Shown here piece by piece: positions 11,071 through 50,222 of a stretch of 64,000 bases of DNA. A program made the translations under genes and the position numbers. The notes beneath the pieces were generated by a model. The model saw nothing but the letters and a program-made list of their open reading frames with translations, made no database searches and had not been told where the DNA came from. The stretch is taken from assembly GCA_000934665.2 (NCBI GenBank), contig KZ538187.1, positions 1-64,000 on the forward strand. Reading direction: 5' to 3'. How positions within the stretch are numbered: the first letter of the stretch is position 1; every line of letters begins with the position of its first letter. The DNA is from Catajapyx aquilonaris. Taxonomy: Eukaryota.

Positions 11071-11350
11071 TATGTTCAAAAGAGCATTTTAGTGTAAGAA
11101 GTGCATCGTTGAACATGATCCATACCTAACACCCATTGATTATGATTATGTCTCAGATTATGTGTCTGTACAGTCTGGATATGTTGGATTCAAGATGTCC
11201 GCCCCCAGTGTGCAAATTTGTGCGAATCGACCAAACCCACACCAAACCACAAGGTCAAGAAGTGAGAATCGCCTCCCGCAATAAGCACGTGTCCTTCTGT
11301 CGTCCTTGCAAAGTACTCAGGTGTTAATTAGTAATTAGCAAATTGTTCAA

Positions 11351-16875: not shown

Positions 16876-19865
16876 CTACTGACTGTCATCAGCTTTTGAT
16901 GGAGGTATGCTCAGCATCATGCTCTTCCACGACAAGCGAAACTGTTTTAGTGTCATCAAGTCCTGAAGCTGAGCCTGGAAAAGAAAAGGGGGTCTCAGTT
17001 ACACACACAATTTCACATAAACATTTCCATATGCATACTTACTAGGGGAGTCTTCCTGTCATAGCTCACTGCCCTTCTTTTGTATATCGATGGACATGAG
17101 AAGTCAATGCTTCTCTTCATTGCTTCCACCCTAGGGCTCTTCAGCTCACTACCAAGAGCAACTAGGCCATTTAGCAAGGCTCGGCTTGATTCCGGGCTCA
17201 GGTCAGGAGGTGGCTCGCCATCACATAAGGTTGCCAAGCAGCGGTAGATGGCACGATAGTCCACACCACCTGACTCCTCTACAGATGGGATTTTTCCAAA
17301 CGTGGCATAAGCACGCAGGGTGTCTGACAGTACACCTGCTTCATCCACGTAAGAACACTCTTCTGCATGAAACAGTGCCGCAAGCCATTGATCTATCACA
17401 GGCTTCGTCTTGAACTGTGAAGCAAGCAATTATTACAATTAAAATATAGTTCAACTATAAAAAATGTCATCCTTTCATTCAAACAAATTGCCCAATTGCT
17501 AGATCAGCAGTTCCCAAACTGTGTTCTGCGGAACCCCAGGATGCCGCACCACAGCAAAAATGTCATTCAAGTAGCAAACAAGGAATACATCACGATCACG
17601 TCATTTGGTTCCTAGGACCTAGAACTCAGCACGAAGGTAGCACAGCAGCATATCTCCAAATAACATTGTCCGACCGTATTCATATGATCTCAGACTACAT
17701 TAAAGAGGAATTAATTCAGAGGCTGAAAGTTTGAGAAGGGTTTTCAATGCAACTGGACGAGAGTACTGACTTACGATATTTCTTGTTTTATGAGGCCTTT
17801 GTAGACCAATGCAATCAGGGAAGAAATTTTAAAAATCATCAATTGTTACATGCATAAACTGTGTCTTGATTCATGAACATTTGCAGCAATAGAGCTGTAG
17901 TGATGGTATAGGGAAATTGAAAGGGTTGGTATCAAGAGTTTCAAAATGTAGCGCCAAGTTGTACAGTACCAGCAGCCATTGCATCTTGCACTGGCATGCC
18001 CTGGTGGCAAAGAACATTACAGGTGACTTAAGGGCACCGGATACCTCTGCGATTTCTCAGAATTGTGGGCCAAGTTTGGCCGAGTCACTGTGCAGCGTTT
18101 TCTTTGCACAGCTGATGCAGGGATCTCGCTGGAGGTACGGAACTGAAATTTTCACAGTATGGCAAGGAAGGCCAATTGAGCCCCTGATGGAGTTTCGAAC
18201 CATTTGAATAATAATTGCGTGATCTACGAGGGAAGGAGTTTTTGAAAAAAGGCTCATGACATCGTGGCTCCGGATTCGAATTTGGGAAATATCTAGAAGG
18301 TGAGTGATGGCAAATGAATAATTCCTCTCTTACTCCTCCAAAGCGCAATTAATTGGGGCTATTGGTGTTTGCTCAGCTATTAAAAGCGTTTCACCACCTC
18401 ACCTCATAAAATCGGCAGAGAACTTTCAAATGTAGAACAGTTGGTTCTTGTCTAGGTTGCCAGGTTCAGGCTAAATCATTTAAAAAGCACATGGGCAACA
18501 GGAAACCAACTGTTCTATTTTCAGAAGTACTCCCTCCAATTTTACCCGGTGCGATGGTCAACGGTTTTAATTTCTGTGTGCAAGGAAATTTCTGGCCAGG
18601 CATCTTGAGACATGCTCTGGTTTTTTTCCTAGGGAGGACTTTTCCACTCCTAGCAAACATGCCTAATTTTTACACAACCTTAAATGGCTAATTGGATGTG
18701 CTTACCTCGCCGACATATTTAGGAAACTTGATGAGGGGTTCCCTGACCAGAAAGGTTTGGGGGTCACTCACCTGTTGTAGACTTCTTGCCTGATGTTTCT
18801 GATAATTCTTCTCAACAAAAATGGAAACGGCTGCCTCAGTCTTGTTTCCCATAAAGTTGGCAAGTTCTCGATGTTTGTGCATCCCATACTTCTTCAAGCC
18901 TTCCACCAATTTCAGCTTATCCTCATTGGTCCAAGTGTAAGTAACCTCCGCCCTCCTCCTGCTCCACTTCAGTGCTCGCTTCGAGTTCATACCTGCAAAG
19001 AGTTGCAATCTTTAATCCAAATCTTGGACGTCTTGCGCAATTGAAAAACTCATGCACTGAGAGAGGAATGTCAATGTTGGTTCAGGCAGAGGATCAGGCC
19101 TCCACCTCCATGGGTTGCTCCAAGCCCCTTTGAGTCTCGGTGCAACAAGTTGCCAAGAACATCAATTTTATTTAAATAATGCTTTGGCTACAGGGCCTCA
19201 AAAAATGTGACAGTTTTTAGCTCTAGGCATGAAACACTCAAAATGTGGCTCACCTTGGTTATAGTAGACTGATTTCCACTGTCCTTTGAAGTCTGTTATA
19301 CCCAGAGTCTAAAGTGCTAGCAATGCTTCTCTAATGGCCACACATTTTGCTACTCTCAAGGTTGTTGTCACAACTGAATCGCGGAAATCAATGAGTGATA
19401 TTGGTATTCATGGAAAGATTTGGCTTAACTGTTGACATGTGTTACTTGAATGATGAATGAACTGCAGGCACAAACTGCTCTATGTCTGAGGTGCCACTCA
19501 CTGATCAAGTAGCGAGTGTCGACCCACCCAGTTTCGCCACCACTATTCGTCCCACTAAAAAAATCTTGTTCAACCCAGCAAAATCCCTGGTCAAATCTTT
19601 ATCCCTATTTTCAAGCACCTTTGTTTCATTTTGTTACCAACTTGACATAATCCTCCCAAAACTACCATGCAAGAGTGTCAGCTTGAGCCCAGCCTCTTAT
19701 TCTGACCCCCCGTACCTGACCGATCCACACATTTGGTCCGTTACACTTTCTGCAGGAGTCTGCTGCACCTCCTCCTCAATTTAGCGATGCGACGACCAGA
19801 TATTTACCCGAGTACAAGGCAGAGCGGCTTCCTCCTCGACGATTCTCCGACACCGGAGGCGCCAT
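16876..19865 (-). CDS. SNAPC2/SNAP45-like protein with N-terminal SANT/Myb-like repeat (~249 aa)
   Basis: Exons 19865-19808, 18992-18772, 17414-17043, 16974-16876 join in frame (750 nt). Contains MAPP..RR..LYSG, WTNEDKLKLVEGLKKYG (SANT), PVIDQW and VDYRAIYRCLATLCDGEPPPDLSPESSRALL, which resemble vertebrate SNAPC2 segments as I recall them. Confidence 0.65.
17505..18300 (+). mobile_element. Degraded hAT (Buster/Charlie-like) transposon remnant in an intron of the SNAPC2-like gene
   Basis: Terminus cagcagttcccaaactgtg. Transposase fragments FSMQLDESTD and HCILHWHALVAK with stops and frameshifts. Right boundary approximate. Confidence 0.7.
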
Positions 19866-20363: not shown

Positions 20364-23300
20364 CTACTTCTGCTGGTCACAAAACCTGAAGCCTTTTCCC
20401 ATGCAGGCTGCGTAGCCAATGGCATGCGGGATGTAGTTCTCCTCAACGACTCCACTGAACAGGTGGGACTGCGGGCCGGTTGCGAAGATGGCGACGTCGT
20501 CTCCACCGTGGGTTTCTGACCTCAAGGGTGAAGTTGCAGGAAACCTGTACTCCTTGTCGTCTGTCAAGTACAGCAAAAGTCAGGCACAGTAACTGGAACC
20601 ATCACAATTTTAATTTAATCACAAACGGTCATACCCATCTGATCTTCTCCGATGTCATGGCGCTCCCCATCAGACGAGGGCCTTTTGTAACCTGGCCCAT
20701 TCGCATAGGATAAGGTTGAATACGGAAGGTCGTCCATATTTGAATATCCTGCCATTCCTAGGATGTCATGTCCTCTGTCTGGGTAGCCACCTATGGTCAT
20801 AGTGTGTGCATGGTCGGCCGTCACAAGAATCAGTGTGTCCGCTGCATTAGTAAGCTCCATGGCCACTTTCACAGCTTCTTCAAACTGCAGAGTCTCCTCC
20901 AGGGCTTTGCGAGGCTTGGACTCGTGGTGTGCATGGTCAATCCTACCACCTGGTTCGATAAATCACAAACAATCTGCTCATGAAAATGTCTACAAACCCA
21001 GAATAATTCACTCCTCCTGAAATGTTAAAAAGTGAAGAAAAAAAAGGAACTGGCAATGAACATTGTTATGAAATTATTCACATTTTTCTCTTTTCCACAT
21101 TTCAACTGAGCACATTTTCAAGGTGAGCAAATTACTAGCTGGGTTCAAACAAGTAAATTCACTGACCTCTTGAAAATGCTTAACTTTGGTCAAACTCACC
21201 TTCAACAAAAAGGAAAAATCCCCTGGGCTGCTTCCTGAGCACCTCAATTGCCATCCTGGTCATTTCTGCCAAAGTTGGCTTTGTTTGTGGATCAGCGTCC
21301 AAGAAATACTCCATATTGGTCCAGTCAAAAAGTCCTAGGAGATAGTCCGTCCTCAAGGGATCCACTCTAAGCAGGTTGTCCCTGTCCCAAACATAAGCGT
21401 GTGTTGCGTTTCTCTTGCGTTTGTCCTCCTGCCAAGCGGATATGAGGTTCTTCCCATCCCTTCTCCTTCCATATGCCCTGTACTCAACGTCCAGCTCAGT
21501 GTTAGGCATCAGCTCTCGTCTGCCCCCTCCCAGGATGACTCTTATGTTGGCTCCAGGCTCTTTTTCTACAAGCTGCTCAGCTATATCGTGGCAGAAGTCA
21601 GGGTCTTGACGGTCATTGCGGATGGCACCGTCGTTTTCCCAGCTGCGACGGGCAACGTGAGCATAGCAGCCTGCAGGACTGGCATGGGTCACACGAGTCG
21701 TTGTCACCACACCTGTCCACTTTCCAGCATCCTGCAATTGTTCAAGCGTGAACTATAAATTTCACAGGCCTGTCAATAACCTTCATCAGTTGAATTCAAT
21801 TTGCCAAAAAAATTTCATAGCATTGTATGTTGAAATTGTGCCGGTTTCACTTATTTGAGAGGCATTTTAAACTGTCAGCAGGAATTATTCATTAGTGCCA
21901 GAAATTTTACAACTATTAAATGTATCAAACATCACTTCCTCTGGTAAGACATTAATTTAGGCCTACATGTGTCATAATAAAAACAAAAGGGGAATTAAAA
22001 ATAAGCTTCCTTTAACAACTGACTCTACTTGTAGAGAAAGTGAATCACCATGGAAAGTGGTAATTAATAAAAATAAATGAGCAACTGGGAAGCACTACCT
22101 GTCAACCGGACTTCACTTTCATTTCACATATGACAAGTGATAAAGCGATTTTTTTAAGCATGCAGCCTACCAGTTGAACGGCTTGCTCTAAAAGGTTGTA
22201 AAACATATAATCAACCTACCTGTGCAGACTTGAGAATTGAGTCCACATGATTGTCAGGGTCCATCATGCCCTCACAGTCTCCGACGGTGACTTTGGGTGA
22301 CACACCAATAGTCCCCATGTTGGCTTTAACACCTCCCAAATAAGCCGTGGCTGTGCAGGCTGAATCTGCTACCTGGCTGTCTACGCAATAGGTCTGTAAC
22401 AACAATACAAGTGAGGTGATGACATAACTCATTATATTCAAATCCCACCTTTGACAGTGCCACATGCGGAAACTTCTCAAACTCCAGTTCCACTTCCTCT
22501 CCATTCCTCAGCCCTGACTTCTGACCCTTGTAAATCCTGGCAGCGGTCAGTGTCGGTATGGACATCCCATCACCCATGAAGAAGATGACATTTCTGGCCG
22601 GCCTGTTGGTAATGTCCCTATGCCGCAACCTCTTGACCAACTGCTGCTGTCCCACATCATTCCAATAAGATGCAGCTGTAGGAAGTGCACAACCAAAACA
22701 AGCCAGATTTCACTCTCTTCCAAGCAACAAACGAGACTGGTCTGACCCAGAAATGCAAAACACACACATATACATTACAAAAAAAAGAGGAAAAAAACCA
22801 TCTTCGTGCATTACCTTCCTCCAGCCCTTGCCTCACAGTACCCCGTAGGTCCTTCCCTATATCCGGATGGACGAACGAATCTCCTTGGAAAAAAAGTTTT
22901 TGCTTTCACTCATGTTGCTTTCCCAGGAATGTTTGGGGAATTAAAAGTGGGCCAATGATGGGAGGATGGATGACCCATAGTCGAAGACGACAGTTATAAG
23001 CAGAAGGAGAGGAGTCAGTTGACATACTCTACATTTGTGCCTATACTTTTCTTTTTTACCTTCTTCCTCAATAGAGAGAGAGAGAAAGCTACCGGTCAGC
23101 TAAAAGAAAGTGTATTGCAGTCTGTATAATCGTCGAAGTAATTCTTGACCGGTAGAAACAAAAGTCGGAAGTCTACGTCTAAAAGGTGCAAAAACTCTGA
23201 CGTAAAAATCATTCGCATCATAATTTCACGCTGGAAATAATGTCAAAAATTATTCAGCTTCGTAACTTATTAGTTTCTAATAATATTAAGGCAAATCAAA

Positions 23301-23814: not shown

Positions 23815-25633
23815 TCTAAGCAACCGGCTCCGATACTCTCCTTTTCTTGTCTTCCTTCCAGCTGCGATGGGAAAGGAGGAACAAGGTCACGGCAATCTTC
23901 CTCATTGCCCAGACCAGCATCTTTACCACACCAACCTGATTTCCGCTTTTTTTCCTCTCTTTTTGTGCTTATTTTTCTACCTTAGTACTCAGCAACAATA
24001 TTTGGTCGTCTATGAGGAGATACCGGAAACGAGATGAGGTTTTATTAGCAACCTGAGACCACATGTGTGCCCAATCAGCATTCGAGGCAAAAACCACCTG
24101 TCCGGACCGGTGATGAGTCAATTAAAAGAGCGGGTTTCAATTGTTCGGAAGATGCAGATGTCAAGTGTCACTTTCTCTGAAGTCGAGTTTCATACGTGTC
24201 GATTATTCGCGATACATTGCAGCGAATTCGGACAATGACTGCGGAAATATTGTCGGTTCCAATCATATTTTTTGTGGCAGTAACATATTGAATTATTACA
24301 ATAACTGCCAGGACCTTTAATGCTGCAGGTGTAGATTGTTTTATGACAATAATGATTAGTGTGACATGTGCAAATATATGAATGCGATAAGACGGGTGCA
24401 TAAGATTCTGATGACAAGAGATTCAAAATATTATCCGATGTGTCGCATTGCGTAATCATTGTTATCGCAATGCACATAATTATGTATACGCTGTATGTCA
24501 CCTCATCAGTCAGCACATACATTATCTTCACATACATTTTAGATTTCATTGTAAATGCAGAATGGCCATGAACTTCTTATTGTGCAATGAAGTCGGCAAT
24601 GAATATTGCGAATCAATAGCTGCTCCAGTGTGTAAATTTCTTAAATGACGCCATAAAATAATGCATATCGTGAAAGACAAGTATAAAGTTTCATTTCTAG
24701 TGTATGTAGTGCTGGATCGAGGCTTGCTTTTGTTGCCTTGTTCACCCTTGTTGCTACTATATAGAGGTGCCTGCGAAATTCATCGCTGTAACTTATTTAT
24801 TAGCAAGACACGCAGATTGTAAATGTCAAAATTTGAGCAGAGCCTGACAAATTGCAGGTATGTATAACTTGCAGTAACTATGAGTAAGAATTTGGAATTG
24901 TAAAAATAATAAGTTTTTTTTAAATACTAGAGATATTAAAATGTTTGTTTTGGCTTTAATAATTCTCGTTGTCTTCCCATTCCTTCCAGTTCCATTAATT
25001 TTGATTAATTTCCATTCCATTCAATGCAATTCACCATTAACGTCAGAGCCATTCATTAGACTCGTCATTTCATTAATTTTATTGCTCATTTTCTTGTGTA
25101 AATTCGCTTTCTTCAATTTAATTTGAAATCATTTTCTTCCTTCCACCGCTAATGACCCCTAACTAGTGTGTGAAATTATTGTCGTTGTTATTCGAGGGGT
25201 GGATAAGTTAAAAAGTTTGCCTCCCAGTCCTTGGAGAATGTGACGTCAGAGAGAGGATAGTAAGGTTACATAGGTTATAAAGTATGTAGGATTGTAGGTC
25301 CATAGTAAGAAACAATGGCAGTTGCAAACTTGCAATGGACAGTATAGTTATCATCACTCATGATTAGTTACATTATATGAGGAAAAGCCTTTCTTTGGGT
25401 GACAGTTCCATTACGGTTTTGGGTTACTGGCGGTGACGTATTTAGGTTTTTCCCCCATCTAGGCCTTATCTGTCTCCCCCCCCCCCCCCTCGCCCCACTC
25501 CTGGTTGATTTTTAGGTCCGAGATTGAAATTACGAAATTTGTGTATTTCAAGGCCAAAAATCTGGAAAATTGTTATTTCAAATAATTTGAAATTTTGGTT
25601 ATGGATACACAGTCTACTATTTACAACAGAACT

Positions 25634-26153
25634 AACTCTTCTGACCCTCCTAAATTTTGAAATTTTTTGGATTTTCTAATTCTGCTTGACCTATAGTGTT
25701 GTGCAAACCTCACCTCTGCTGCCAATTTTCACGTTAGCAGGGTCAAAATACAAGCCAAAGACCGAAATTTCGAAGCCACAACACCTGCATCCGGTCGCGG
25801 GTGGCCGGTCGCCGGTCCCGGCTGGCCGGTCGCGGGTCGTCGCGACTGATATCAGGGATATGCAAATTATTGCTTAAACTTGATTCGTAAATTACTACAC
25901 AAAATCTATTCCGAAGCGTGTGACGTCACATTCTCTTGCTCGCGCCACCCTAGACCTAGAGCACGCTACAGTCCCGGGGACCTGCGACCCGCGACCGGCT
26001 GCTACGTGTTGTGGCTTCGGAATATCGCATTTTGCGCTTTAGCTTGTATTTTGACGTGAAAATTAGCAGCCGAGGTGATGTTTGCACAACATTATAGGCC
26101 AAGCAGAATTAGAAAATCAAAATTTTTTCAAAATTTAGGAAGGTAAGAAGGTT
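25634..26153. mobile_element. Foldback/MITE with ~170-bp imperfect inverted arms
   Basis: Left arm cttctgaccctcctaaattttg..ttctaattctgcttgacctata..gtcaaaatacaagc..ccggtcgcggg is mirrored by cccgcgaccgg..gcttgtattttgac..tataggccaagcagaattagaa..aatttaggaaggtaagaag. Confidence 0.8.
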
Positions 26154-26967
26154 GTTAGGAAAATCCTGAGAATTTCATGTCTAGACCAGTAAGGGCATCG
26201 GGCGAATCATCTTGGGGCGGCACATGAACGGTGACATAATTATTTTCGCACGCATCAAATTTTCTCCTCGATAGAATTTTCCGCCTCCATGACATTTGCG
26301 TAACACCCCTGGTTACGGGAGGGCATAAAGTGGCAATTACTCTGTACAATGAAAACTATATAGTCACACGTGATGAAGCAAGTTAATCCGGACAATGGAC
26401 ATTTAAGCATTTAAGTATTTTTTATCTGGCAGCAAATATGTACACGTAGATCCGACCCTGCCTATAGATTGGTAAGAATGAGAGCAATCAATACATTCAA
26501 TAGCGCTCAAGCACATTCAAGTTCGCCGTGCTATTGTCTGGATGCACGTGACTGTAAAACAACATTCCCTTACTATATTAAATTACCTCGAGGGGGTAAC
26601 CACTTCCTGGTGTACAGAGTCCCTGTGGAACCTGCCTGGAACCGGCTTATCGGAACCGAGTGGAACCACCTGGTTCCAGGAACACTTTTTCGGGGAGTAT
26701 AGGGCTAGTTACCCCCTTGAATTACCAGTCATATTCACCTTTATTACTCTCAACCGTAGCTATGTAATCAACTTAAAGTACGCCTTAATTATTGCACCTT
26801 GTTCTTATATTAAACTTTTAATACTGTGTATAATGACACAAAATAATTGCAATTATTTTCACGCAGAATTATAATATTTTAAGAGGCTTAGTTTGCCAGG
26901 GTCTAAATCCTCGCCAAATAACAATAGTATTTTTTAAAAATTACTTTGAAAAATACTACCCTGATTC

Positions 26968-27210
26968 GCCACACGGTGGCGGAGTGGTTAGCGCCGCAGC
27001 CTTCCACCTCTAAGGTCCCGAGTTCGATCCCCGGGTCGGCCGGAGGATACTTATGTGGATAGAGTTTCGATGGGTTCTCTCCGAGTTCGAGTGGGTTTTC
27101 TCGGGGTTCTCCTGTTTCCTCCCACAATCAAAACCCATCACAGCGCCTAAGGCAATGATTAAAGTCGGGTATTTAAAAGATGATCAATTACTACTACTAC
27201 TACTACTACC
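26968..27210 (+). mobile_element. tRNA-derived SINE with V-domain core and (TAC)n tail
   Basis: A box tggcggagtgg, B box gagttcgatcc, V-core gtgggttttctcggggttctcctgtttcctcccaca, (tac)n tail, imperfect TSD accctgattc/accccgattc. Confidence 0.85.
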
Positions 27211-27762
27211 ACCACCCCGATTCTGCCTATTTAATTTTAAAATGCATCCCCGCCGTTCGTCCCCTGTACAATGTGACATATTATTGCGCACTTGCGAATA
27301 TTATTCTTGCTCACGAGAATTGGGTCAATTTGTCCAAACGTAACCATCATCATCGGTTCTTCCCCACGAATACAGTACCCCGCTTTAAAAAAAAAAAAAA
27401 AAATCAATGCGGAAACGCCACTTATCTATCTATAGCATGCTTTTTTGGCATTTCCCGACAAGTTATCAGACACTTTCCCTTATCAACTCATTTTAGTTCA
27501 TTTCATATTTGCACATTTCCAAAATTAGATAAGTGTTTCCTCACTCTAACCACCTGCATCTGCGCAGGTTAAGTGCACCGCGTGACAATAGTCAATACGA
27601 GCCAATATTTTGCCAGCAGGCATGACATACGCACATTGATATCCATTCATTCCAAAACATGCCATTAAGATTCCGATTGCATTACCCTCGAGGGTATAAA
27701 ACCCTTTCACGTGAGCGTTACCTCATCTGGCGCGAATATTCGCATTGGGCGTAAGTGTGAGC

Positions 27763-27773
27763 GGGGAATCCCC
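27763..27773. promoter_or_regulatory. NF-kB/Rel binding site upstream of viperin
   Basis: GGGGAATCCCC, 331 bp before the ATG. Confidence 0.6.
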
Positions 27774-28026
27774 TCGCACCGGGTCTGAAATTGGCGGCCG
27801 AGCTCAATGCCAAACAGCATGAGTCAAAAACAATGTCAGTGCACTTATGCCACACCATGCCTATTAATGACATAAAATGTGCCCATAAAATTTTAATCAA
27901 AAATCGACTGAAAAAGTATACGCTTGATCCATACCCCGTATTTTCCTATCATAAACTCCTATCCAACGCCTCACTTGAAACGGTATGTACGTTGTGGCTC
28001 ACTCTGTACTTGGCAAGCCCGCGCAT

Positions 28027-28038
28027 ATATATAAAAGG
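28027..28038 (+). promoter_or_regulatory. TATA box of viperin
   Basis: tatatataaaag about 70 bp before acc-ATG-g (strong Kozak context). Confidence 0.65.
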
Positions 28039-28103
28039 ACGCGGTTTGGTACTACGCCATTGCTCTTTCGGATTTGAACTGTTCTTCAGCAGTGGCAGCG
28101 ACC

Positions 28104-30427
28104 ATGGAGGAAGTGACCTCTAACACAACCTACCAGTGGAACCTGGTTGACTTCATCCCCAGTTTTCTGGTGGGAATACCAATATTAGGACGTTGGTCAG
28201 TCATCACTTTAGCGACAGTGGCCATCATCTTCACCGCGCATTACATAACCAGCAAGTCCAGTTCGGAGGTGGTGGTGTTGAAGGCCCGGAAAAAGGCTGA
28301 CCGGAAGACATCGCGGAAGAAGACCAGCAATGACGGAGAGGAAGAATCTCCAAAGTTGGTACCGATCAGCGTCAACTACCACTTCACTCGCAAGTGCAAT
28401 TACAGCTGCGGGTTTTGCTTTCATACCGCTAAGACATCGTTCAAGTTGCCCATCGAGGACGCCAAGAGAGGTCTAAGAATGCTGTTGGATGCTGGTAAGT
28501 TTGTTTATGGTGTAAGAAGGGTTCAAATGTGGTCGTTAGTTGAACAAATATTCTAAGTTGCTGGACATTGCTCATTGAACATTGTTGCTGCACAGCCTGC
28601 ACTAATTGGTGGGTTCCAACACCTTGTCCCAATGAGCTCATATTTTATGTGATGGTTTGATGATAATTGTCATCCTTAATGTTGCTAGGTATGCAGAAGG
28701 TGAACTTCTCTGGAGGAGAGCCTTTCATTGAAGACCGTGGTGAATACTTGGGGCAATTGGTGCAATTTTGCAAGGAGGAGTTGGCACTGCCCAGTGTGTC
28801 CATCGTCAGTAATGGAAGTCTGATTAGAGAGAACTGGTTTCGCAAATACGGTATGATAAATGTGGTCATCGGCTGAGATGACAACTTCAAGTAAGTACAT
28901 TTTGTGCCTTTCAGGTGATTACTTGGATATTTTGGCAATTTCGTGCGACTCATTCCATGAAGAGACGAACAAAGTTATTGGTCGGGGTCAGGGGAATAAG
29001 AATCACGTGGAGAAACTGATGGTCATCCAGGACTGGTGTGTCAAGTACAAGGTTGCCTTCAAGATCAACACTGTGGTCAACACATACAACAAGGATGAAG
29101 ACATGAATTCTGCGATTCAACTTCTACAGCCAATTAGATGGAAGGTAAGTTATCAAAAAGTGGTGTGTTATGCATAATTATTCTGAACACACACATGCTT
29201 TCAGGTCTTCCAGTGTCTCTTGTTGGAGGGTGAAAATGTTGGACCAGAAGCACTTCGTAATGCAGAATCCTTTTACATAACTGACGAGGAATTCCAGACC
29301 TTTCTGCAAAATCATAGCGAAGTTACCTGCCTGGTCCCTGAGTCCAATGTTAAGGTAACAACAACAAAATCTTATATGGACAATCATGTTCTCTCATTAG
29401 TCTCATATACACAAGCAGTACATAGAATACAGTCACAGTTAACTCACCTAAAATGGGCCGCTGCCTTTTTGATAATGAGCTGTCCCTACTATCCTGCTCA
29501 CTTAATAAGCAAGTGAACTTTGTGTACCTAAGGTGAAGCCCTAGTACAAGAGCAATCACCTTCAGATCTCCACAAATATGCCAAGAATACTTCTCATACT
29601 TACACATGAACCACATCAAATATGAGGGGCCCACGGGGGTGTCCTAATCTCCAATCTTACACCCAAAATAGAGCTCGTATGAGACTTGAATATTAATTCA
29701 CCACCCATGTAACAAAAATTGTCGGATGCTTTATACAACTATGAGGCATTTAATGTTTTGCTCACTAGATCAGGCTTGACACGAAAAGAAATGGTTTTAA
29801 ACAACAAAGAGTATGAAGTACCCAACAGGCTGTTTTCAACATGTATTCAGTTACCAAAAATTTGACCCTAGGACAAACTCTGACCTCACAGATTTTATAA
29901 AAACTGATGTTCCAGTTGCCTTACTCTGCTTATAAGGAAATTTAATCACTATAAGCAAGAGTGCTATAAGTTAGTTAAGAAATTAGCATGGTAGATATAT
30001 AAATGAAACACTCACCCTCTTGTTGCTGGGATACTTTCCACTCGCGTCTGAATCAATGACTCGGTTCGGCTCAAGCATGAAGTAGTCTTGATCAAGTTTC
30101 ATCATTGGGAATTCCAGTGATACCTTTCCCAACCAAAATAATTGACCCCTCTTTCTTCTCACTTGACAGATGCAAAACAGTTACCTCATACTAGATGAGT
30201 ATGTAAGTAAACATATTTTGTGCACAGTAAACAATAAAATTACAACACGTTTATCTTGATAGATGCGATTCCTGGACTGTCGCAACGGGAAGAAAACGCC
30301 ATCAAGATCTCTGCTGGATGTTGGTGTTGAAAATGCACTGAACTACTCGGGGTTTGATGAGGACATGTTTTTTAAGCGTGGTGGAAAATATGTGTGGAGC
30401 AAATCAGACATGAGGTTTGAGTTCTGA
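28104..30427 (+). CDS. RSAD2: Viperin (radical SAM ddhNTP synthase)
   Basis: Exons 28104-28494, 28689-28850, 28915-29144, 29205-29354, 30170-30202, 30263-30427. Motifs [92 protein letters not shown]. Confidence 0.97.
29440..29900 (-). mobile_element. DNA transposase remnant (probably Chapaev3/CMC-type) in viperin intron 4
   Basis: Minus-strand fragment [33 protein letters not shown] resembles the WxICGDLKV..LLG.Q.GYTK..CFLC.WDSR transposase motif. Family assignment is from memory; boundaries approximate. Confidence 0.55.
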
Positions 30428-30655
30428 ATATTGGACAACGTCGGATTTTATTCATTACATGCAGATGTTTCAGTTCATTATATATTGTCATCAGTAAAAA
30501 GTTCCTGTCATTGCACTTTTTAGAGGGGAATAGGAGAAACTCTGAAACAATCCATTTCCAGCTAACAACTTCACATGATCAAATTTAACACAACCGATTA
30601 ATCTCAGTTTCTGACTTAGACTACGACTAGTCTCTCACAAAAAAATTTAACTGAC

Positions 30656-33600
30656 TCACTTGTCCTTCCCCCTTATGTAAGATTCATCAAACATTTCCAA
30701 CTCCTGTATCAGGAAGTTGGCTTTGTTTCGTAGCACTTTAGCAGCTGCCACTGTCTCGTCAAGCATCTTCAATTCCTTCTCAAGATTGCCAATCTCGGAC
30801 TGCATCTCCGTAGTGGCCTCATCAACCAAGTAGGAAAGTCGGGCCATCGTGCTGGAAAGTTCTCTGCAAAGGAAGTGTTCAATTGGTTTACCAGCACGTT
30901 CTTCTGAATTCCTTGTTTAATCCCCTACCAAGTTTTATTCAGCATTATTGCATCCATGTACAGAGTAAAGTGTGAAATGGAATATCTTTGGCTACTACTG
31001 CAGCATAATGACCATGGCGTAGCTTATACCCGGTTTTGCCTGCCTGCATTGAAGACACCAAGAAAAGTCTTTCGTCTCTCAAATATTTTCATGAGATGTT
31101 GAGACACAAAAATTATTATGCTCATAAATGCACTTGCACTGTTCAAATTCAAACCCCAGTGCTTACCCTCAGGTTTGGAATAGTTATTTTGAGAATTATC
31201 TGTACAATTCCAATCTTACGGTACATAGCTCAATATCATGTGTTTCACTGCCTCAAAAAAGTCAATGCCAGGCAAGAGTGGAAGATATGACCATGCAGAT
31301 TTAGTATTCGCTCAATGCGGACATGCAAAATATGGTTCTAGTCACTAAATTGAAAGTAGGCGTTGAAAATGTTGTAGCTAAAGTCATTATGCTGCAGTTG
31401 GTGGTGGAAATTCATGAAGCACTTTTTATGTTCGAAATGTACGTATTTACTGGATGCACTTACTTGTCACATTTAAGTGTTTTGTAAATTGGTACACTGC
31501 ACCATATCACCTTGCATTGCAAATTACTGTAAGTTTCTGTGTCAGAATGTCCAGTGCTCCAAGTATGCATGGTCACAAATTTCACCCAGATTTGTGCCCC
31601 TACCAAGATGCCCAATTATTCTCAGACGTGGTTGAACATCGCAGGTGCTACATAATTGGGTACCTAGTTCGGGGCACAAAAAGCTACACAAAAATAACAA
31701 CTTGCAACATTTGCAATAACTACAAGGACCTGAATACTGAAATACACTGATTCACTCGGCATAGAGTTGGTGAATAGACGGTGCAATTTGCAGGACACTG
31801 TTGTAAATTACAAGTGTGACTATGACACATTATCACAGTGTAATTTATTCAGTTATAATGGAGGCATTCCATACTCCAACTGTATTGAAATATATTTCGT
31901 TAGAATATATTTGCATAAAGCCTACATTTATTAACGATTGCCAAGTGTTGCATCACATGAAAAAAGGCAGGTACTTACTGTTGGACTTGATGACTGCAGT
32001 TGGCAGAAGTGAGATCAACAATCATCCTCAGCTTTCGAGTAACGTAGTCAACATACTGTCTCTTGAAGGATCTCTCTTTGGCCTTGTTAGTCCAGGTGAG
32101 CCTCTCGTACAGGTAGAGACAGCCATAGATCATGCCTGTCACAACTATCACTCGCCAACCCACTGTTTTAAACAACTGAAACATTGAAGAGACAAATGTC
32201 AAATTAATGCAATAAAAGACACCCTAAAGGCCGGTATCGACGTGCGAGTTCCTCGTATGCGAGTCCTCTTACGCGAGAAATCTTGTACGTTGAGACGGAC
32301 TCTTTTTTGCCTCTGGGCCCCTCTTGTCCCTCGAAAAGGGGATTAAAGTTGAAAATGTTCAACTTTTCCTCGTTCCTCGTATCCGGGCATGCGCAGTTGG
32401 CTCCTCGTATGCGAGAAACCTCATACGTGGATACCGGTCTTAACAGGAAGGTCACACATGTGATGGCAGCAAAAAAAATATATTGGCATATTACGTGGGA
32501 CATCTTGCAATAAACTTCTGAGGGTTGTTTCTGAGTCTCTGGCAACACCTCTGGAGTTTTATAAAATTCAACTTCAATTATGCTAAAATTAGTAACTTGT
32601 CAAAATAGTCCCACTCCTAATCTCAAAAACCACCGCAATTTTCACGCATCTTCCAAGTGACCAGAAATGAAACTTACAAATCCACCAATGATGAGGCCTC
32701 CCATGGTGCCCTGTGACGTGACAGTCGCAATGGCCACCCTGGTCATCAGGGCCCAGTCGCTCTGACCAGGACCAGTCGAAACTGACAAGCAACTGTCACC
32801 AATAGGTGTCATTGGGGTTGATGGTTCCCCACCACCCATTCCGCTTGATGGGCCAGGCATTCCTGTAGGAGCGGCAGATGAGGTCCCTCCGGTCATAAAG
32901 GCAGCAGCACCACTCCTGACCAGCTTTCCAAATAAGACGTTGATTCCCAGGGAGAAGTGGAAGTCAACATCTTCTTTAAAGTCAGAGCACAGGTTATCGC
33001 AGTTGAGCCTGTAGAGAACCTCAAAAGGCTCACGACGTGGCAGAAGGTTAAGGGACAGCTGCTTCTTGTCAGATGGGAGCAATGACGACATTCGTTCAGC
33101 CATTTCGCGTTGGGAACTTTCGATGTTAGCCGCTAAAGTGGAACTTAGTCGTGCCCTCAGGTTACTCCCGAGGCCACCTTCCACATAACAATGCAACTCT
33201 CGCTTGTATACATTAAGCACCAATGGGTCAGGATGGAATGGCATGCTGAATTCCTCCACTAAAACAGACAGGCGGCGTATTTCTTCACTTAAGGCTTTGG
33301 ATACCTTCTGGTTCACATCTCCTGTCATCTGACAGATTTTCTCCTTCATCTCTCGTGTTAATAGCTCCAGCTGCTTCTCAGTGAAATCCAACTTGTCCAG
33401 AAGCTCTTTGCGTGCCTCATAGCTCTCGCTACGAAGCCTCTGTGTGGTCTCATAGACTCTATCCATAGCTGCCCGTACTTCCTGAGAGATGTGTCTTCCC
33501 CGTTGGGAGTGCTGCTCAAATTTCGTTCGCACTGCTGACTTGGATATACACTCCTCAAACTTTCGTTCAAAGTCTTGGAACTCAAAGTAGCGGTTGGGGA

Positions 33601-36402
33601 ATCCATCTGCGATTGCGCCAGCTGTTGTGGGATGACAAAAGGTTAAAAAGGTCAATTGAGATCATGTCAGATACAATCAACTGTCTTCATAAAACTAGGC
33701 ATTTCTTTGGTCATTACCCAACTGATCACATGATTCAATAATTTCAGCTATTCACTTTGGATTATTCCATTACTACGTACATGAGGCAAATTTACAAAGG
33801 GGTGCAAATAAGATGTGCACTACATGGCAAGAACAATTAACTGCAAGAATTGGGGCCACATATCTTAGACGTGCATCAAATTATGACCGAAAAATTCAGC
33901 TCCAAAACTTATTAATTCATCAATAAATCAGAGTACAGACTGTGGGCAGGCAATCCCTTCTGCTCCTGAAGCCTCCCTTGCAGTGCTTCCTTGGCGGACA
34001 CAAAGAATATCCTCTCTTGTGCTTCTTCCCTTTTACACACTTTCAGCTCCTTGACTAGAAAGTCCATGTCCCTGTCCACATGTTGAGACCGAACCTAGCA
34101 GAATAAAAAGTCAGTATCATTATACAATCCAAGTGATTACAAGTCCCACTTGGGCCTCCTCCCAAGTTTTTCTGCAAAGTATTTCATTGTGCGCATCTAA
34201 AGCAGCTTGAAGAAAAGGGATATCAGCAAGCACTATAATTATTCCCTATTGCCACCAACTCAACATTATGAACAGTAATGTGAAATTTGTACCAGCCTAC
34301 ATATTGGAACCTTTTTGCGAAGTGCCTGGGATCGCAGGCAGAGGTGACTGGGAGGACATGTTCGAGGTGCAAGTCTTAGCTCAGTCATTTTGTGACTTCA
34401 CCTAGGAGGTTAGTCTCAAGGAATCCCACCCAAGACAGAGCCAGAGACGACCCAACTCTGCACGAAATAAAAGAGGGGAATGCCCGGGCTAGGGACTGAA
34501 CCCACTCCTTCAATCCGTGGGAGCATACACATTACCATAGCACCACTCCGCCTCCCAAGAATTATAATGAAAAAACTACTCTCACTATCAAATAAGTAAC
34601 CCAGATGCGGTGGCCTGCACAAGAAGCAACGAACTAGTATACAATTGCAACTCTACTTGCAACTTTCAGACATTAAAAATCCAGAATTACCTGATCCTGT
34701 TCATTTTGCAGCTTGTGACAAGAAATGTGGGGGACATTAAGACAATCGGAGGAAGAACTTACCACCTATGCTAACATGCTAGGTACTATACAAAAAAAAA
34801 AAAAAAACGTCAAGAAGAGCCTATTTAAGAATCAGCTATAAAGAGGGACCTTTTTCATGCAAAACAATTCATCCTTCAATGTTTACATTACACTAGGAGA
34901 AGTACATTGATATAAGATTCAAAAATTTTCACAACATGACTTACCTGATCAAGGTAATCTGGCTCAGTTGCAGATGCATCCCAACGATTATTGAGTATAA
35001 AGATATTTGGTTTCGACAGTCGGGTCGACACTTTGTGAAAGAAGTTCTTCTCCTGAAAATTAAATGTGACGTCCCCAAATTGCATTTTAAAAGTCAAATA
35101 AGTCAGCGGACATGCTGCAGTAATGAAGTGCCACACCAACATAGTGGTTGGTGATAGTCGCTAACTTCCTCATATATTTCATTTACACTCTAAGGTGCTG
35201 TTGAGCTTAAACAGAACAAAGCTCTTGTCCACAAACATCAAGTTCATGCATATTTGAAGCTACAATTCAGTGACATACATAGTAAATTTAATTATTTAAT
35301 TAAACCTTTATACTTACTGTGACCATAAGAGTTGATTCTGCATTTGCAACAAGTACAAACACATCAGCATCGAGGCAATGCTTGTCAATCCATTCATCCA
35401 GATTGGGTGACACATCAATTCCAGGAGAATCCACAAAGACCACATCATCCCTCAGCAAAGGACATTTATTCTTTGGCCAGAAGACACGGACCAGCGAACT
35501 CTCGCACAGCTTCTGATCACAGAGGGCATGTGCCAGTTGGCCCACAGACTGTTGCAGAACAAATAATAATAATAAGAAGTCAACTTCTCTGCACCGCAAA
35601 TGCCACAACAGAATTGCATGACATACCTTGACATTAAGCTTGGCGTCAGATCCTTCTGCAATGAGATAGGCCTCTCCATTTTCTGACCCCTCCACTTGTA
35701 GGAAACAGTTTGTCGTGTGTCCAATACCGCTTGGAAGGATCTTGTCATGGAGCATGGCATTTATTACAGTGCTCTTGCCATTACTTGTCCTGTGAAGCAA
35801 ACATTTGCATAAGTCTATTGCTATTGCATGTTTCTTGGTGAAAATAAAATGCGATATATTTATGGTGAAGTATGCATACACTGGACTATAAACATGCACA
35901 TTGGTCAAGGGACCATGACATTTGTAATCAAATGGCTACATCCAAAAAATTTAGTTACCTTCCAAAAAAAGCAACCTTCATGTGATCCCTGGCCAACACC
36001 TCCCTGATTCCAGCCACCTTCTGCACATACCCATCAACCTCCTTTCCATCTGCTTCACTGATGATCTCTTTGTCCTTAGGAATATCTGCAAGCATAGCCC
36101 ATCGTAAAATCCACTCTTCATTATCTAGCATAAAAACAGCATAATCCCAACTAACTGTGTATAAATCGAATTGCATCCTTAACGTAGTCGTCGATGTCGA
36201 TGTAGATGCTGTTGATCTTCTGCTTTGCCTTCACGAATATCTGGAGCGGGGACGAATTGGAAACGGATGTTGGCGTATCTCTCAAAATAGGCCTCGGTGG
36301 TGGGGGCTGAGAGGGGGCGTCACCTCCACCCAGGGGTCGCCCCTGGGCAGATGAGCCACCCTCCACCAGGGCCGAAATGGAGCGGTTCAAAAGCGCAGCC
36401 AT
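30656..36402 (-). CDS. MFN: Mitofusin (Marf/MFN) mitochondrial fusion GTPase
   Basis: Exons 36402-36156, 36085-35959, 35789-35627, 35548-35318, 35052-34945, 34094-33941, 33621-32678, 32175-31979, 30863-30656. Motifs [57 protein letters not shown]. Confidence 0.97.
32228..32440. mobile_element. PIF/Harbinger (Tourist-like) MITE in a mitofusin intron
   Basis: taa|aggccggtatcgacgt ... acgtggataccggtct|taa. Internal cctcgtatgcgag repeats. Confidence 0.75.
34300..34556 (-). mobile_element. Degenerate tRNA-derived SINE in a mitofusin intron
   Basis: Minus strand shows tggtgctatgg (A-box-like) and gggttcagtccc (B-box-like). 3' boundary uncertain. Confidence 0.5.
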
Positions 36403-39859: not shown

Positions 39860-42800
39860 ATGGTTCTGGAAATGGACGGCGGGACTGTGGGTGACAATGG
39901 GACAACTGCGGTTCGGACGGCTCCCAGGAGAAAGTCGTCTTCTGCGCTGATGTGTTTCAACGAGTACCAGACGCTTCTGGAGAAGATTGAAACACGGGTT
40001 GAATCCGGGGACAAGTTCTTCTCCCTGGAGTTCTTCCCACCCAGGATACGAGGAGGTGCTGCAAATTTACTCCAAGTGTAAGAAATCCCACCCACTTCAA
40101 TTAATATATATGACCTTCGATAATAGCATGCTGTTTTCACATGTCGCCTTATCAACCACCAGCATTTCCTGTTCAAAAATAATTACTCATGTTATTAAAG
40201 GATGTGAAGATGTGCGCAAAAATCATAACTGGTTTTTCATATCAACAGATTTACTTTTCATTTATCCAGTTCTATGCTATCAGAAAGTAGTGCAAATTAA
40301 TCCTACATTTGGTGATAACTAATCTTCATGTCATAATATGCTGCATTGTTTCAATGCCTTACTGCCACATTCCTGACCAAGTTGCTGCACTAAAACTTGC
40401 ATCATTTTCTATCATAACTCTATTGTTCGCAAGGAATTTGAAATATCACTTGAAGCATCATACACTTCCTTGCATACCATGTGGCACATAAACATTGTTC
40501 ATAATATATTGTCCAAACAGTTTTGACGATGTGCGTATGGGAGGCCCCCTCTTCTGTGATATCACCTGGCATCCGGGCAATAACCCTGCCTCAGAATCCG
40601 AGACATCCTCCATGACCATTGCTAGTGCAGCACTCAACTACTGTGGACTAGAGACTATGCTTCATCTCACATGCTGTCAGGCTACGAAGGTTCAGATTAC
40701 TGGTTATCTGAAGAGGGCCAAGGAACTGGGCATAAAGAACATTTTGGCACTCAGAGGAGGTTAGGATGTTACTCAGGTTATTGCCCGCTTGTGACTCATA
40801 CTGATAACAATTGTGCAGATGTTGCTGTGGAAGGCGAGGAGTGGATTTCGTCCCCTGATGGATTCATGTACGCAACTGAGCTTGTGAGTCATATACGCAA
40901 GGAATTTGGGAACTACTTTGTCATCGGGGTTGCTGGATATCCAACAGGTCATCCGGAAGCTGACTCCTATGAGGATGACTTGAAGCACCTAAAGGAAAAG
41001 GTAACCGCAAGGGCATTAATTCCTAACCGAAAATTATCTGTGCCACTTTCCCTCAATCTTCAAGGTTTCCTATGGTGCAACATTTTACTTTCTAGGTGGA
41101 TGCAGGTGCTGATTTCATCATAACGCAGCTGTTCTTCAAGGCAGAGACATTCATTAGATTTGTACAGGATTGCCGAGCCATTGGTATTAAGTGCCCAATC
41201 CTTCCTGGAATTATGCCGCTACAGAGTTATGACTCCCTTCGCCACATCGTGAAACTGTCCCGCCTGGAAGTTCCACCGGAGATACTGTCCGTGGTGACTC
41301 CACTAAGAGACAATGATGAGGCCATACGTAATTATGGGATCCGACATGCTGTGGATCTCATTCGAGAGCTCTTTGATGTGCATCCAGAGACGCCTGGAGT
41401 CCACTTGTACACCTTGAATCGGCAGGTAGCGTCAGTAGCCATATTACGCCAGCTTGGATTGTGGCAGCCAGATCCACATCGCCCATTTCCATGGCGGCTG
41501 TCTGCTAACAACCGTCGTCAATCGGAAGATGTGCGCCCAATATTCTGGAGTGCAAGACCCCGTGCATACGTTTATAGAACTCGCCACTGGTGTGAGTTCC
41601 CTAATGGTCGCTGGGGTCGATCTGAATGTCCTGCTTTTGGTGACCTTAAAGACTATTACTTGTTCTACCTGAAGAGTCGCAGCCCCAAAGTTGAGCTGCT
41701 CAACATGTGGGGCCATGAAATCCCAGATGAAACTGATGTGTGGGGTGTTTTCACACGTTACATAACAGGCGAAGCGAATGACCTGGGAGTGAAGGTATGA
41801 GAGTCTTGTGTACTATAGGGAAGCTAGTACGCATTCATTTAATTACTCATTGATGTCCATCTGATATGTATTACTGAACATGGTAGATTTGTAACATTGC
41901 AATACTTAAACAATGGCAGGATTATTAAAGTACCGTAATGCAATAAATATTTGAGTAAGCTCTCTGAATAGTCATGCCAATCAAATTCCATTATATTCCA
42001 ATTTTTTAAAGGTTGGATGATGTCACCATTGCTATTACGAAATGATTACAAAGGTGATGTTCATCCAAATTTGTGCGAAAATCATGCATGTTGTAAATTC
42101 CCAGCACCAATTTATTAATAATTAAATGTCACTTACGTGGTGGAATCAACTCCTTCATGCAGGTGACCAAGATAGCTTGGAATGAAGATGAGTTGAGTCC
42201 CGAGACAGTGGTCCTGAGGGATCAGCTTGCAGATGTGAACCGGCGAGGTGTACTGACGATCAACTCTCAGCCGAACGTCAATGGGGAAGAGAGCACTCAT
42301 CCTGTGTTTGGATGGGGGCAGCCAGGAGGTTATGTCTATCAGAGAGCATACCTTGAATTCTTCACATGTGCCAAGAATGCCAGAGCACTCAAAAAGGTGC
42401 TACCTTCCTTTCCATCCATCACGTATCATCTCATCAACAGCACTGTAAGTTTTTAATTGGGTCATGTTTCAACTTTTATACTCTACTAATTCATTTCCTG
42501 CTTGTCACGTAGGGTTCAAAGAGCCACACCAATGCCCACAAGCATCGTCCTGTGGCAGTCACTTGGGGTGTGTTCCCAGGCCACGAGGTCGTGCAGCCCA
42601 CAGTGGTGGATCCTGTTAGCTTCCGAGCCTGGAAGGACGAAGCCTTTGGGCTGTGGACCCACTCCTGGGGCAGACTTTATCCAGATGGATCACGTTCCAA
42701 GCAAGTTCTCCAGGAGATAGCCCAGTCCTACTTTTTGGTCAACCTTGTGGACAATGATTATCCCAAGGAGAGCTGTCTCTGGAATGTGTTGGAAGCCATG

Positions 42801-42893
42801 TTCCAAATCAGGGATGACATTGGAGATGAGGAGAGTGATGAGGAATTTGAGCGGGAGAGGAGTGTCAGCACTGACAGTGTTCATTCCAAATGA
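39860..42893 (+). CDS. MTHFR: Methylenetetrahydrofolate reductase with C-terminal regulatory domain
   Basis: Exons 39860-40077, 40521-40759, 40819-41000, 41096-41794, 42163-42444, 42513-42893. Motifs [80 protein letters not shown]. Confidence 0.97.
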
Positions 42894-43977
42894 AATAGTA
42901 TTACAAACCAGTATTTTTCCATCAATGAGACGTCCATTACTAACTTAGACAAGGGTGTTTGTAAAATAAAATATAAGCACGACTCTCTTCTGAATCGAAG
43001 TGCGTGGACCAGCCACTGCAAACCAAAATCGCTCTTTGGAACTCCTTTTGCCAAAACTTTGAAGCCAAAGCCTTAATTTTCAAGATAAAATGCCAGAGGA
43101 CATTTCCATTTAAAATGGTGTCCTATACCAGTGGTATCACATTTTTCAAACATTTCCAAGCACTCCTACATTGTCCAAATGTGCCATGTGATATGCAATA
43201 TGTCTGAATGTTACTATTGCAACAGGAATTCTTGGCATTTAAAATGTAATTTATATTTTTTAGCATTTGCATGGAAATTACAAACGAGGACCAATGCCCA
43301 TTTTTCAACAGTAAATTTTCCCATGGTATGAAACATGGGAACGTGAATGATTAGTCACATTCGTGGCAATGAAATGATTGCAGTTAAATTACTGCAGTAC
43401 TAAAATTCAATTGCCAAGTCTTGTGTTTGCCAATAATATATTCCGCAGATGCAGGGCTGCCATGTGGTATTTAAACTAGATAAATTACGTGTGAGTGTGC
43501 ATAACTGTAGGTTGCCAGAATGTCGGATCTTGCATGTGCATAACGACTTCAAGGTAGCAACAAAAATGTGTGTGGAAAACTACCACGGCAACCATGTAGG
43601 CAGCCTCTAGGCGTCACAACCGTCCTTGACATACAATGCTAACCTGCAGTGCCAATAAATAAACATTATTCAAATACAGCAACCACACAGCAGCGTATCA
43701 CATGAGCGACAGTCAGATTCAGACTGAGCACCAACCTACAAAAGTGACACCGGTGAATTTGGTTGTAGCTTGACTGATGGAAAACCCTCCCAATAAAGGG
43801 TTGCAAGAGTTTGATCAACTGTTCTTTTAATGGTAAAACTTTAGCTGTACACTTTTAGAATCAAAATAGCACGTGCAAAATAAATTGAGTAACCTGCGCA
43901 TCAGCCTTGGTATTCTTATCCCCTTACACCTGTGAGAAGAGGGGACGTAGTATATGGGGGGACTACTTAACAAATGT

Positions 43978-49169: not shown

Positions 49170-50222
49170 ATGGCCGACTTGAACAAGGAGCTTCAGGACT
49201 ACCTGTCCCGAAGCGAGAAGGGTCCAGGCGGCTCGGGGCAGGCCGGGGGATCAGCAGGGCAGAGCCAGAGGCTGCTCAGCCTCCCTGCGCTGGCGGCCAT
49301 CACTCCAAAGTCCACCGGGAAGTGGTTCGGGGGGAAGGGAGGCGACAAGGTGTCATCGGCCGAGAACGGGGGTCAGCCGGACAGGAACGGGTGGTTCGGA
49401 GGGTACGGGGCCAAGACCACGCAGCCAGACGACGCGGCCACCTCGTGCTTCCCTGCACTGGTACTACAACTTCACTTAAAGAGTCACACGCTGACAGTCA
49501 AACTTAACTGTGTCTGGCATATGTTACTGCTAACGTGCTAAGCTGCTTTGCAAACAGTTGCTTTCATGTGTCCGCATGTGTCACTACACTAATATTATCA
49601 TAATGATATTTCATGCACAGTAAGGCAGCGTAGTTGTCTAAACGCAAATATTTGTGTTGCGGCTGTTGACATATATTTCATGCTGATGTTGGATGTAGAG
49701 TGTGATAACTTATGGAGGTCAATTTTCAGAGTCACCGGCAGAGGATAGTGGGGTTCGTGGCGTGTATTGGGATGGGGATATTCTGCTTTGGCATGGCTGC
49801 CCTGTACACGCCGATGCTCGTGTTTAAGGCCAGGAAGTTTGCTCTCATGTACACCCTCGGCAGCTTGTTCATCATATTCAGGTAACAATCACTATACATT
49901 ATTTGAAAATTGACATGAAAAATTGCATTAAAACTATGTTAATAATTTCAGCTTTTCCTTCCTGTGGGGCCCGTGGAATCACTTGCGCCACCTTTTTTCT
50001 TCAGAGAGGGCAGCTTTTACGGCCACTTACTTTGGCACCCTCTTTGCCACCCTGTATTGCGCCCTCAGCTTGCAGAGTACGCCTCTCACAGTTTTGTTCG
50101 CAGTTGGACAGGTGATTGCGCTACTATGGTTCCTCTCCAGCTACCTTCCCGGGGGTCAGACGGGGATCAGGTTTTTTGGAAGAGTGTTTTCAAGCTCAGT
50201 ATCCAAAACATTGCCAGTTTGA
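49170..50222 (+). CDS. SFT2D3: Vesicle transport protein SFT2 (SFT2D3/SFT2C-like)
   Basis: Exons 49170-49460, 49730-49881, 49952-50222. Motifs MADLNKELQDYL, KARKFALMYTLGSL, HLFSSER, SYLPGGQTG. Confidence 0.85.

Follow-up and report, generated by a model that had tools for sequence, protein, structure and literature searches.

A transcribed and spliced viperin gene in Catajapyx aquilonaris, predicted to make ddhCTP

A stretch of 64,000 nucleotides from Catajapyx aquilonaris (GenBank assembly GCA_000934665.2, contig KZ538187.1, positions 1 to 64,000 of the forward strand), hereafter the window, carries a gene for viperin (RSAD2), the radical S-adenosylmethionine (SAM) enzyme producing antiviral 3'-deoxy-3',4'-didehydro nucleotides (ddhNTPs). 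A preliminary description of the window had proposed an intact six-exon viperin gene at 28104..30427, and these positions indeed run from the start codon (28104) to the stop codon (TGA, 30425-30427) of a frame that stays open. With exon borders assigned by inspection and with a script, the coding sequence on the plus strand comprises six exons and 1131 nt, encodes 376 amino acids (aa) with zero internal stops, and is interrupted by introns that are all bounded by GT..AG. The CxxxCxxC motif that had been pointed out is present as CNYSCGFC at aa 98-105. So is the N-terminal hydrophobic segment (aa 14-51), whose Kyte-Doolittle hydropathy in a 19-residue window reaches its maximum of 1.86 over aa 25-43; hydropathy comparison found comparable N-terminal segments in other arthropod viperins.

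The stretch is present in five public sequencing runs. Of these, four are DNA runs from a single sample, possibly the source of the window itself, while the fifth (X5), from the same organism and from another sample and study, contains 0.35 of the sampled words and is of unrecorded kind. An X5 contig of 3553 letters aligns to the window at 28789-28849, 28914-29142, 29203-29352, 30168-30202 and 30263-30700. At the joints between these blocks (28849/28914, 29142/29203, 29352/30168 and 30202/30263) it skips 64, 60, 815 and 60 bases, each a GT..AG segment that coincides exactly with one of the predicted introns 2 to 5. In the DNA run X1 the stretch is one unbroken piece, and all of these joints are absent. 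Another X5 contig spans 28087-28320 and has 70 extra letters upstream, 30 of which map uniquely to 24825-24854. This overhang places a seventh, non-coding 5' exon (exon 0) about 3.2 kb upstream of the six exons described previously, with a donor that reads ...TTGCAG/GTATGT and an acceptor ...TTCTTCAG/CAGTGG at 28089/28090. Because five introns (introns 0 and 2-5) are removed in its contigs, we take X5 to be transcript-derived. The viperin gene is transcribed and spliced.

We then assigned the protein to a family by scanning its exons one by one against NCBIfam. The matches to TIGR04278 ('antiviral radical SAM protein viperin'), given by exons 1, 2, 3, 4 and 6, are colinear and cover model positions 22-100, 103-155, 157-232, 233-282 and 294-346 of 347, and the 11-position gap in the match corresponds to the 11-aa exon 5. 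The exon scores (96.7+98.7+123.8+70.1+94.2) add up to 483.5 bits, where the cut-off is 450; the total is approximate, as the pieces were scored separately and exon 5 is left out. For NF038283, a model that includes prokaryotic viperins, the sum over the exons is just 178 bits. Single exons gave weak Radical_SAM and Fer4_12 matches in Pfam, the pieces being short. In searches of the PDB, exon 3 matched mouse viperin (5VSL/6Q2P) with an E value of 3e-30, and exon 6 matched best to the Nematostella enzyme 7N7H (4.1e-22), followed by mouse viperin (6.6e-21). Identity to solved viperins is sufficient to settle the fold. The spliced protein is 60-73% identical to full-length animal viperins, in alignments that reach their last residue. 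The closest match, to a Carabus protein, is 73% over 295 aa, so that the protein collection searched does not include the viperin of the host itself. We also compared the protein with 105 of the 120 homologues found, after dropping 15 exon-skipped isoforms, fragments and sequences with aberrant ends. The consensus residue is kept at 130 of the 132 columns that are conserved in at least 95% of these viperins, and the protein departs solely at aa 374 (L to F) and at its last residue, aa 376 (W to F).

The animal origin of the gene is visible in its introns. Model aa 131-184, which is exon 2, is precisely the segment absent from four mammalian short isoforms (P0039, P0107, P0095 and P0008) and from a fish sequence (P0103), and the segment missing from a python isoform (P0098), aa 261-310, agrees with exon 4 (aa 262-311) to within one residue. 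These exon-skipped vertebrate forms place introns 1 to 4 at vertebrate exon borders. Gibel carp viperin genes are likewise reported to have six exons and five introns (PMC8438203). By this alignment, at least four of the five coding introns are common to vertebrates, and they are stronger evidence of descent than the phylogenetic tree described below. Exon 2 contains a binding stretch, and the annotated short forms without this exon, if real, would have no catalytic activity. Viperin is reported to go back to the last eukaryotic common ancestor (PMC10732462; Shomar et al., bioRxiv 10.1101/2023.09.13.557418), and the shared introns are direct evidence that arthropod and vertebrate viperins come from one intron-bearing ancestral gene, which underlines that the absence of viperin from Drosophila is a loss.

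Shared intron positions also exclude that the gene is a contaminant from bacteria, was acquired by recent horizontal transfer or is a retro-copy, and further observations stand against such an origin. The gene has six spliceosomal introns, of which introns 0 and 2-5 are removed in the X5 contigs; it scores 483.5 bits with the eukaryote-type viperin model TIGR04278 against 178 bits with the one that includes prokaryotic members; and its GC content is unremarkable, being even across the window. The preliminary description had argued that the gene lies among host genes and is no prokaryotic contaminant, and ordinary animal genes do flank viperin on both sides within one 51-kb DNA contig. We found nothing in favour of a contaminant, a transferred gene or a dead copy; the idea is refuted as far as the sequence goes and retains virtually no chance.

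Two flanking genes were used to place the host, which had been called arthropod-like. For the 234-aa MTHFR exon the best named matches are crustacean, at 68-71% (Panulirus, Hyalella, Macrobrachium, krill, Daphnia and Tigriopus), and in a tree of 44 rows it falls in a pancrustacean group (approximate likelihood-ratio support, SH-aLRT, 94, unstarred) outside Malacostraca, Copepoda, Branchiopoda, Ostracoda and Collembola. The best named matches of the 339-aa mitofusin exon are hexapod (56-61%), with Ixodes at 52%. Both genes thus place the host in Pancrustacea, and on these matches it is a pancrustacean without a close annotated relative. The phylogeny of viperin itself, which had also been suggested, was obtained with a quick IQ-TREE search on 63 rows (the model, 28 named and 34 unnamed sequences, with about 57 mostly vertebrate rows left out), using a lichen-fungus viperin as outgroup. 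The animal sequences all fall together in a single starred group (SH-aLRT 97), and the Catajapyx model lies inside it as sister to a beetle and aphid group (SH-aLRT 92, unstarred). Resolution is poor and we make no finer claim than membership in the animal viperins.

Table 1. Positions in the window of the viperin gene, of candidate features in its upstream region and of the neighbouring genes.
Feature	Position	Strand	Basis or remark
TATA-like box CTATATAG	24757..24764	+	read in sequence; ~25-30 nt upstream of the distal 5' exon start (position inferred)
Non-coding 5' exon (exon 0)	24785..24857	+	X5 contig; 5' end approximate, 24785 inferred
Upstream open reading frame (uORF), 22 codons, in spliced leader	24823..28123	+	ATG 24823, resumes 28090, stop 28121-28123; computed
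Intron 0, 3232 nt, GT..AG	24858..28089	+	X5 contig overhang
Palindromic kB-like site GGGGAATCCCC	27763..27773	.	~260 nt upstream of proximal TATA box
Strong TATA box TATATATAAAAG	28026..28037	+	inside intron 0, 67 nt upstream of start codon; possible second promoter
Exon 1	28090..28494	+	ATG at 28104 in ACCATGG context; aa 1-130 plus 1 nt; X5 contig over 28087-28320
Hydrophobic segment at the N-terminus (aa 14-51), predicted to anchor the protein in a membrane	28143..28256	+	hydropathy
Radical-SAM cluster motif CNYSCGFC, aa 98-105	28395..28418	+	within TIGR04278 match
Exon 2	28689..28850	+	162 nt, aa 131-184; 3' border joined in X5 contig
Exon 3	28915..29144	+	230 nt; both borders joined in X5 contig
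Exon 4	29205..29354	+	150 nt, aa 262-311; X5 contig support
Exon 5	30170..30202	+	33 nt, 11 aa; both borders joined in X5 contig
Exon 6	30263..30427	+	stop TGA 30425-30427; homology and X5 contig
Beta-8 loop C-R-N-G-K-K with Cys328 and Lys333	30278..30295	+	alignment to 6Q2P
C-terminal tripeptide F-E-F	30416..30424	+	alignment with other viperins
3' untranslated region, at least this far	30428..30700	+	X5 contig unbroken 30263-30700 and beyond
Guanylate cyclase with NIT-domain exon	5826-8323	minus	Pfam
MFS transporter	11339-13129	+	Pfam
Myb/SANT protein	18691-19011	minus	Pfam
Alkaline phosphatase	20618-22709	minus	Pfam
Mitofusin	30659-36230	minus	Pfam
MTHFR	40492-42890	+	Pfam
SCO1	44494-45083	minus	Pfam
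Cyclin	46929-47477	+	Pfam
Got1/Sft2	49932-50219	+	Pfam
RPE65-type oxygenase	50601-53169	minus	Pfam

The nucleotide that the enzyme would use can be predicted from its pocket. In mouse viperin, Cys314 and Lys319 of the beta-8 loop make the pocket CTP-selective, and viperins with this pair are reported to have given ddhCTP only (Shomar et al., bioRxiv 10.1101/2023.09.13.557418). In a HMMER alignment, Cys328 and Lys333 of the Catajapyx protein pair with positions 270 and 275 of the 6Q2P chain, which we read as mouse Cys314 and Lys319; the 44-residue offset between chain and protein numbering that this implies is inferred and fits the five-residue spacing. The presence of this pair makes ddhCTP the predicted and most likely product. 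Use of UTP or of several nucleotides has precedents, as fungal viperins yield ddhUTP and a promiscuous viperin is reported from a cnidarian (Shomar et al., bioRxiv 10.1101/2023.09.13.557418). However, both selective residues are in place, and the reported record of enzymes with this pocket is ddhCTP alone (same source), so that we regard another substrate as highly improbable here. Judged from its sequence, this is a genuine viperin gene that contains introns, belongs to the host and encodes all that ddhCTP synthesis requires.

The intact 376-aa frame, the spliced transcripts, the eukaryote-type signature, the conserved catalytic columns and the introns shared with vertebrates together argue that this is very probably the host's own, single-locus, functional viperin, a radical-SAM nucleotide dehydratase inherited vertically from the bilaterian ancestor. 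As a working model, the N-terminal hydrophobic segment would anchor the protein on the cytosolic face of endoplasmic reticulum or lipid-droplet membranes, and the cytosolic iron-sulfur assembly (CIA) machinery would supply its [4Fe-4S] cluster by way of the aromatic C-terminus. The enzyme would then use SAM to turn CTP, supplied independently of a linked CMPK2, into the chain terminator ddhCTP, which may restrain viral RNA polymerases. Its expression would be raised by arthropod immune signalling through NF-kB/Relish, IRF or STAT, and not by interferon.

Several observations weigh against this interpretation, in the gene model, the tree, the C-terminus and the upstream region. Intron 1 (28495-28688) is bridged by no contig, X5 leaving 28321-28788 uncovered, and is placed by its GT-AG borders and the uninterrupted family-model match. 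In the viperin tree, three decapod sequences lie elsewhere, with weak support, in a quick search whose inner support is weak throughout.

The tail of the protein is unusual, reading F-E-F where other viperins carry L-[DE]-W. Tryptophan is the last residue in 103 of the 105 full-length viperins, and the sole F-ending one is fungal. Among 150 library representatives matched by exon 6, 39 tails look complete; 33 of these end in W, two of them as FDW, and none ends in F. Clients of the cytosolic iron-sulfur pathway are recognised through a C-terminal [LIM]-[DES]-[WF], and viperin is reported to be such a client, its terminal Trp being required for maturation (PMC10245660). In a yeast client, exchange of W for F weakened binding to the CIA complex 16-fold, an effect for which a Leu two places before the end compensates (preprint 10.64898/2026.04.06.716496). 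The last two places of F-E-F fit the consensus, and the third from the end is a Phe, hydrophobic and outside [LIM]. With Phe at the compensating place, cluster loading could be less efficient, and a functional effect of the tail is possible.

Taken further, these data would describe an impaired or differently matured enzyme, i.e., a weakly active or regulatory viperin. Both departures from the near-invariant columns do fall in this tripeptide, no animal viperin among the full-length set or the complete-looking tails ends in F, and compensation for the reported loss of binding, about 16-fold, needs a Leu at -2 (10.64898/2026.04.06.716496). On the other hand, a terminal F belongs to the consensus and is described as functional in vivo (PMC10245660; 10.64898/2026.04.06.716496), the penultimate Glu conforms to it, a Phe at -2 is hydrophobic and recurs in the two FDW tails, and constraint is evident in the remainder of the protein. 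We therefore consider an impaired enzyme very unlikely and retain a functional viperin as the preferred explanation.

The upstream region offers two putative promoters, one at exon 0 and one inside intron 0, although none of the X5 contigs begins at the proximal TATA box TATATATAAAAG. The uORF of the spliced leader is out of frame with the main reading frame and runs across the viperin start codon, and may act as a translational brake. The pattern GGGRNNYYCC, to which the kB-like site belongs, occurs at chance level in the window, with 8 matches at 3 places against 8.7 expected. No canonical interferon-stimulated response element (ISRE), GAAANNGAAA, was found near either putative promoter. An ISRE-like GAAATGAAAC with a one-base spacer lies on the minus strand at 24688-24697, about 90 nt before the distal start, and this pattern occurs 3 times in the window against 1.03 expected; a STAT-type TTCTCTGAA is present in one copy, at 24173. 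The uORF, the second TATA box and the kB-like, ISRE-like and STAT-type sites are leads on regulation and not evidence of it. A further segment of intron 0, 26900-27130, shows open reading frames (ORFs) on both strands and contains one of the three kB-like places (27103); its ORFs appear to resemble the spurious 'protein' sequences read from a repeat element that is frequent in arthropod genomes (...GENP...PGIE.GT...ANHSAT...).

The genes around viperin were identified by comparing stop-to-stop ORFs of at least 75 aa with Pfam; 201 of the 208 were covered, and the remaining 7 are those that overlap viperin. No match to the thymidylate-kinase/CMPK2 family occurs among these 201 ORFs of the window. 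A second scan took, from 450 ORFs of 45-74 aa, the 118 that lie in the five stretches with no gene assigned within about 20 kb of viperin, and found none either, at a resolution that exons shorter than 45 aa would escape. The absence of a CMPK2 partner from the window, stated in the preliminary description, is borne out by both scans. About 30% of fungal and metazoan viperins are reported to have no nearby kinase (Shomar et al., bioRxiv 10.1101/2023.09.13.557418).

The absence of a nearby CMPK2, the lack of a canonical ISRE at the promoters and the finding of spliced transcripts in a run for which no challenge is on record could also be read in favour of an active ddhCTP synthase whose main role is constitutive or metabolic, for example in tuning nucleotide pools, mitochondrial transcription or lipid metabolism, instead of inducible and antiviral. 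Metabolic effects have been reported for vertebrate viperin (PMC11982959, PMC8254119). In contrast, the CTP pocket shows strong purifying conservation, basal expression is compatible with induction, and the product was antiviral in every system tested in the cited work (Shomar et al., bioRxiv 10.1101/2023.09.13.557418). A mainly metabolic role is in our view unlikely.

One could speculate that this is a pancrustacean viperin uncoupled from CMPK2 and controlled at three levels. The leader from the distal promoter, with its uORF, would hold resting translation low; the proximal TATA box and the palindromic kB-like site would form a promoter driven by Relish/NF-kB (e.g., via STING or IMD) that gives a uORF-free mRNA on infection; and the F-E-F tail would limit iron-sulfur loading. 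We regard this scheme as doubtful. If true, it would add three levels of control that are not described for the vertebrate enzyme.

Other features of the window deserve brief mention. Viperin and mitofusin are convergent, with 228 nt between their stop codons and the last mitofusin coding ORF at 30659-30916 on the minus strand. The X5 contig of viperin exons 2-6 extends about 2640 letters past 30700, and the 3' ends of the two genes probably overlap; a contig across both does not prove a single viperin-mitofusin transcript. NIT, the nitrate and nitrite sensing domain, is mainly a bacterial sensor, and here an exon encoding it (PF08376, E 6.4e-9) lies beside two exons for a guanylate/adenylate cyclase catalytic domain (E 3.9e-25 and 1.2e-12) at 5826-8323 on the minus strand, so that a NIT-cyclase in an arthropod may merit attention. 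XAF1 is an interferon-stimulated gene in vertebrates; a sub-threshold match to its C-terminal domain at 43669-43854 on the minus strand (PF18608, E 0.0064, 16.4 bits where the cut-off is 25.8) is probably due to chance. A long GA/CT dinucleotide repeat at 1440-1855 shows up in ORF translations as (RE)n and (SL)n, a single N stands at position 7270, and Rfam and tRNA scans of the window returned nothing.

Compared with vertebrate viperin/RSAD2 (mouse 5VSL, 6Q2P), the Catajapyx protein shares the TIGR04278 signature, the CxxxCxxC motif and the Cys/Lys CTP pocket, as well as the arrangement of an N-terminal membrane segment, a radical-SAM core and a C-terminal extension encoded by six exons. It differs in having no adjacent CMPK2 in the window, an additional non-coding 5' exon with a uORF, and FEF in place of LDW/LEW. 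Together with the Nematostella viperin-like enzyme (7N7H) and with mollusc and echinoderm viperins, it belongs to one animal clade. In decapods (Macrobrachium, Palaemon), beetles (Carabus, Popillia) and aphids (Acyrthosiphon, Schizaphis, Melanaphis), RSAD2-like proteins annotated by NCBI have 60-73% core identity with it and also hydrophobic N-termini; all of them end in W, whereas the Catajapyx viperin ends in F.

We know of no interferon genes in arthropods, which makes the 'interferon-independent' part of the defence proposed in the preliminary description trivially true. A ddhNTP-based defence would be a reasonable function for the predicted enzyme, but it is not novel, as arthropod viperins have been annotated and a copepod enzyme makes ddhCTP. 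That enzyme, EukVip20 of the crustacean Labidocera madurae, is reported to have produced only ddhCTP in E. coli (Shomar et al., bioRxiv 10.1101/2023.09.13.557418). It resembles the Catajapyx protein, by its published description and not by sequence, as an arthropod viperin with a CTP-selective pocket, but the Catajapyx host represents another pancrustacean lineage, outside the copepod clade in the MTHFR tree. According to a review (PMC12943528), poly(I:C) or virus induces the viperin of oysters, and excerpts of shrimp and crustacean papers mention viperin only for molluscs or mammals. We found no in vivo study of an arthropod viperin in the open literature, a weak absence since subscription journals were not covered. 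The only assay that turned up there is the heterologous one of the copepod enzyme. Set beside these known systems, the Catajapyx viperin is real but ordinary, and adds one well-supported arthropod viperin with a transcript-verified structure.

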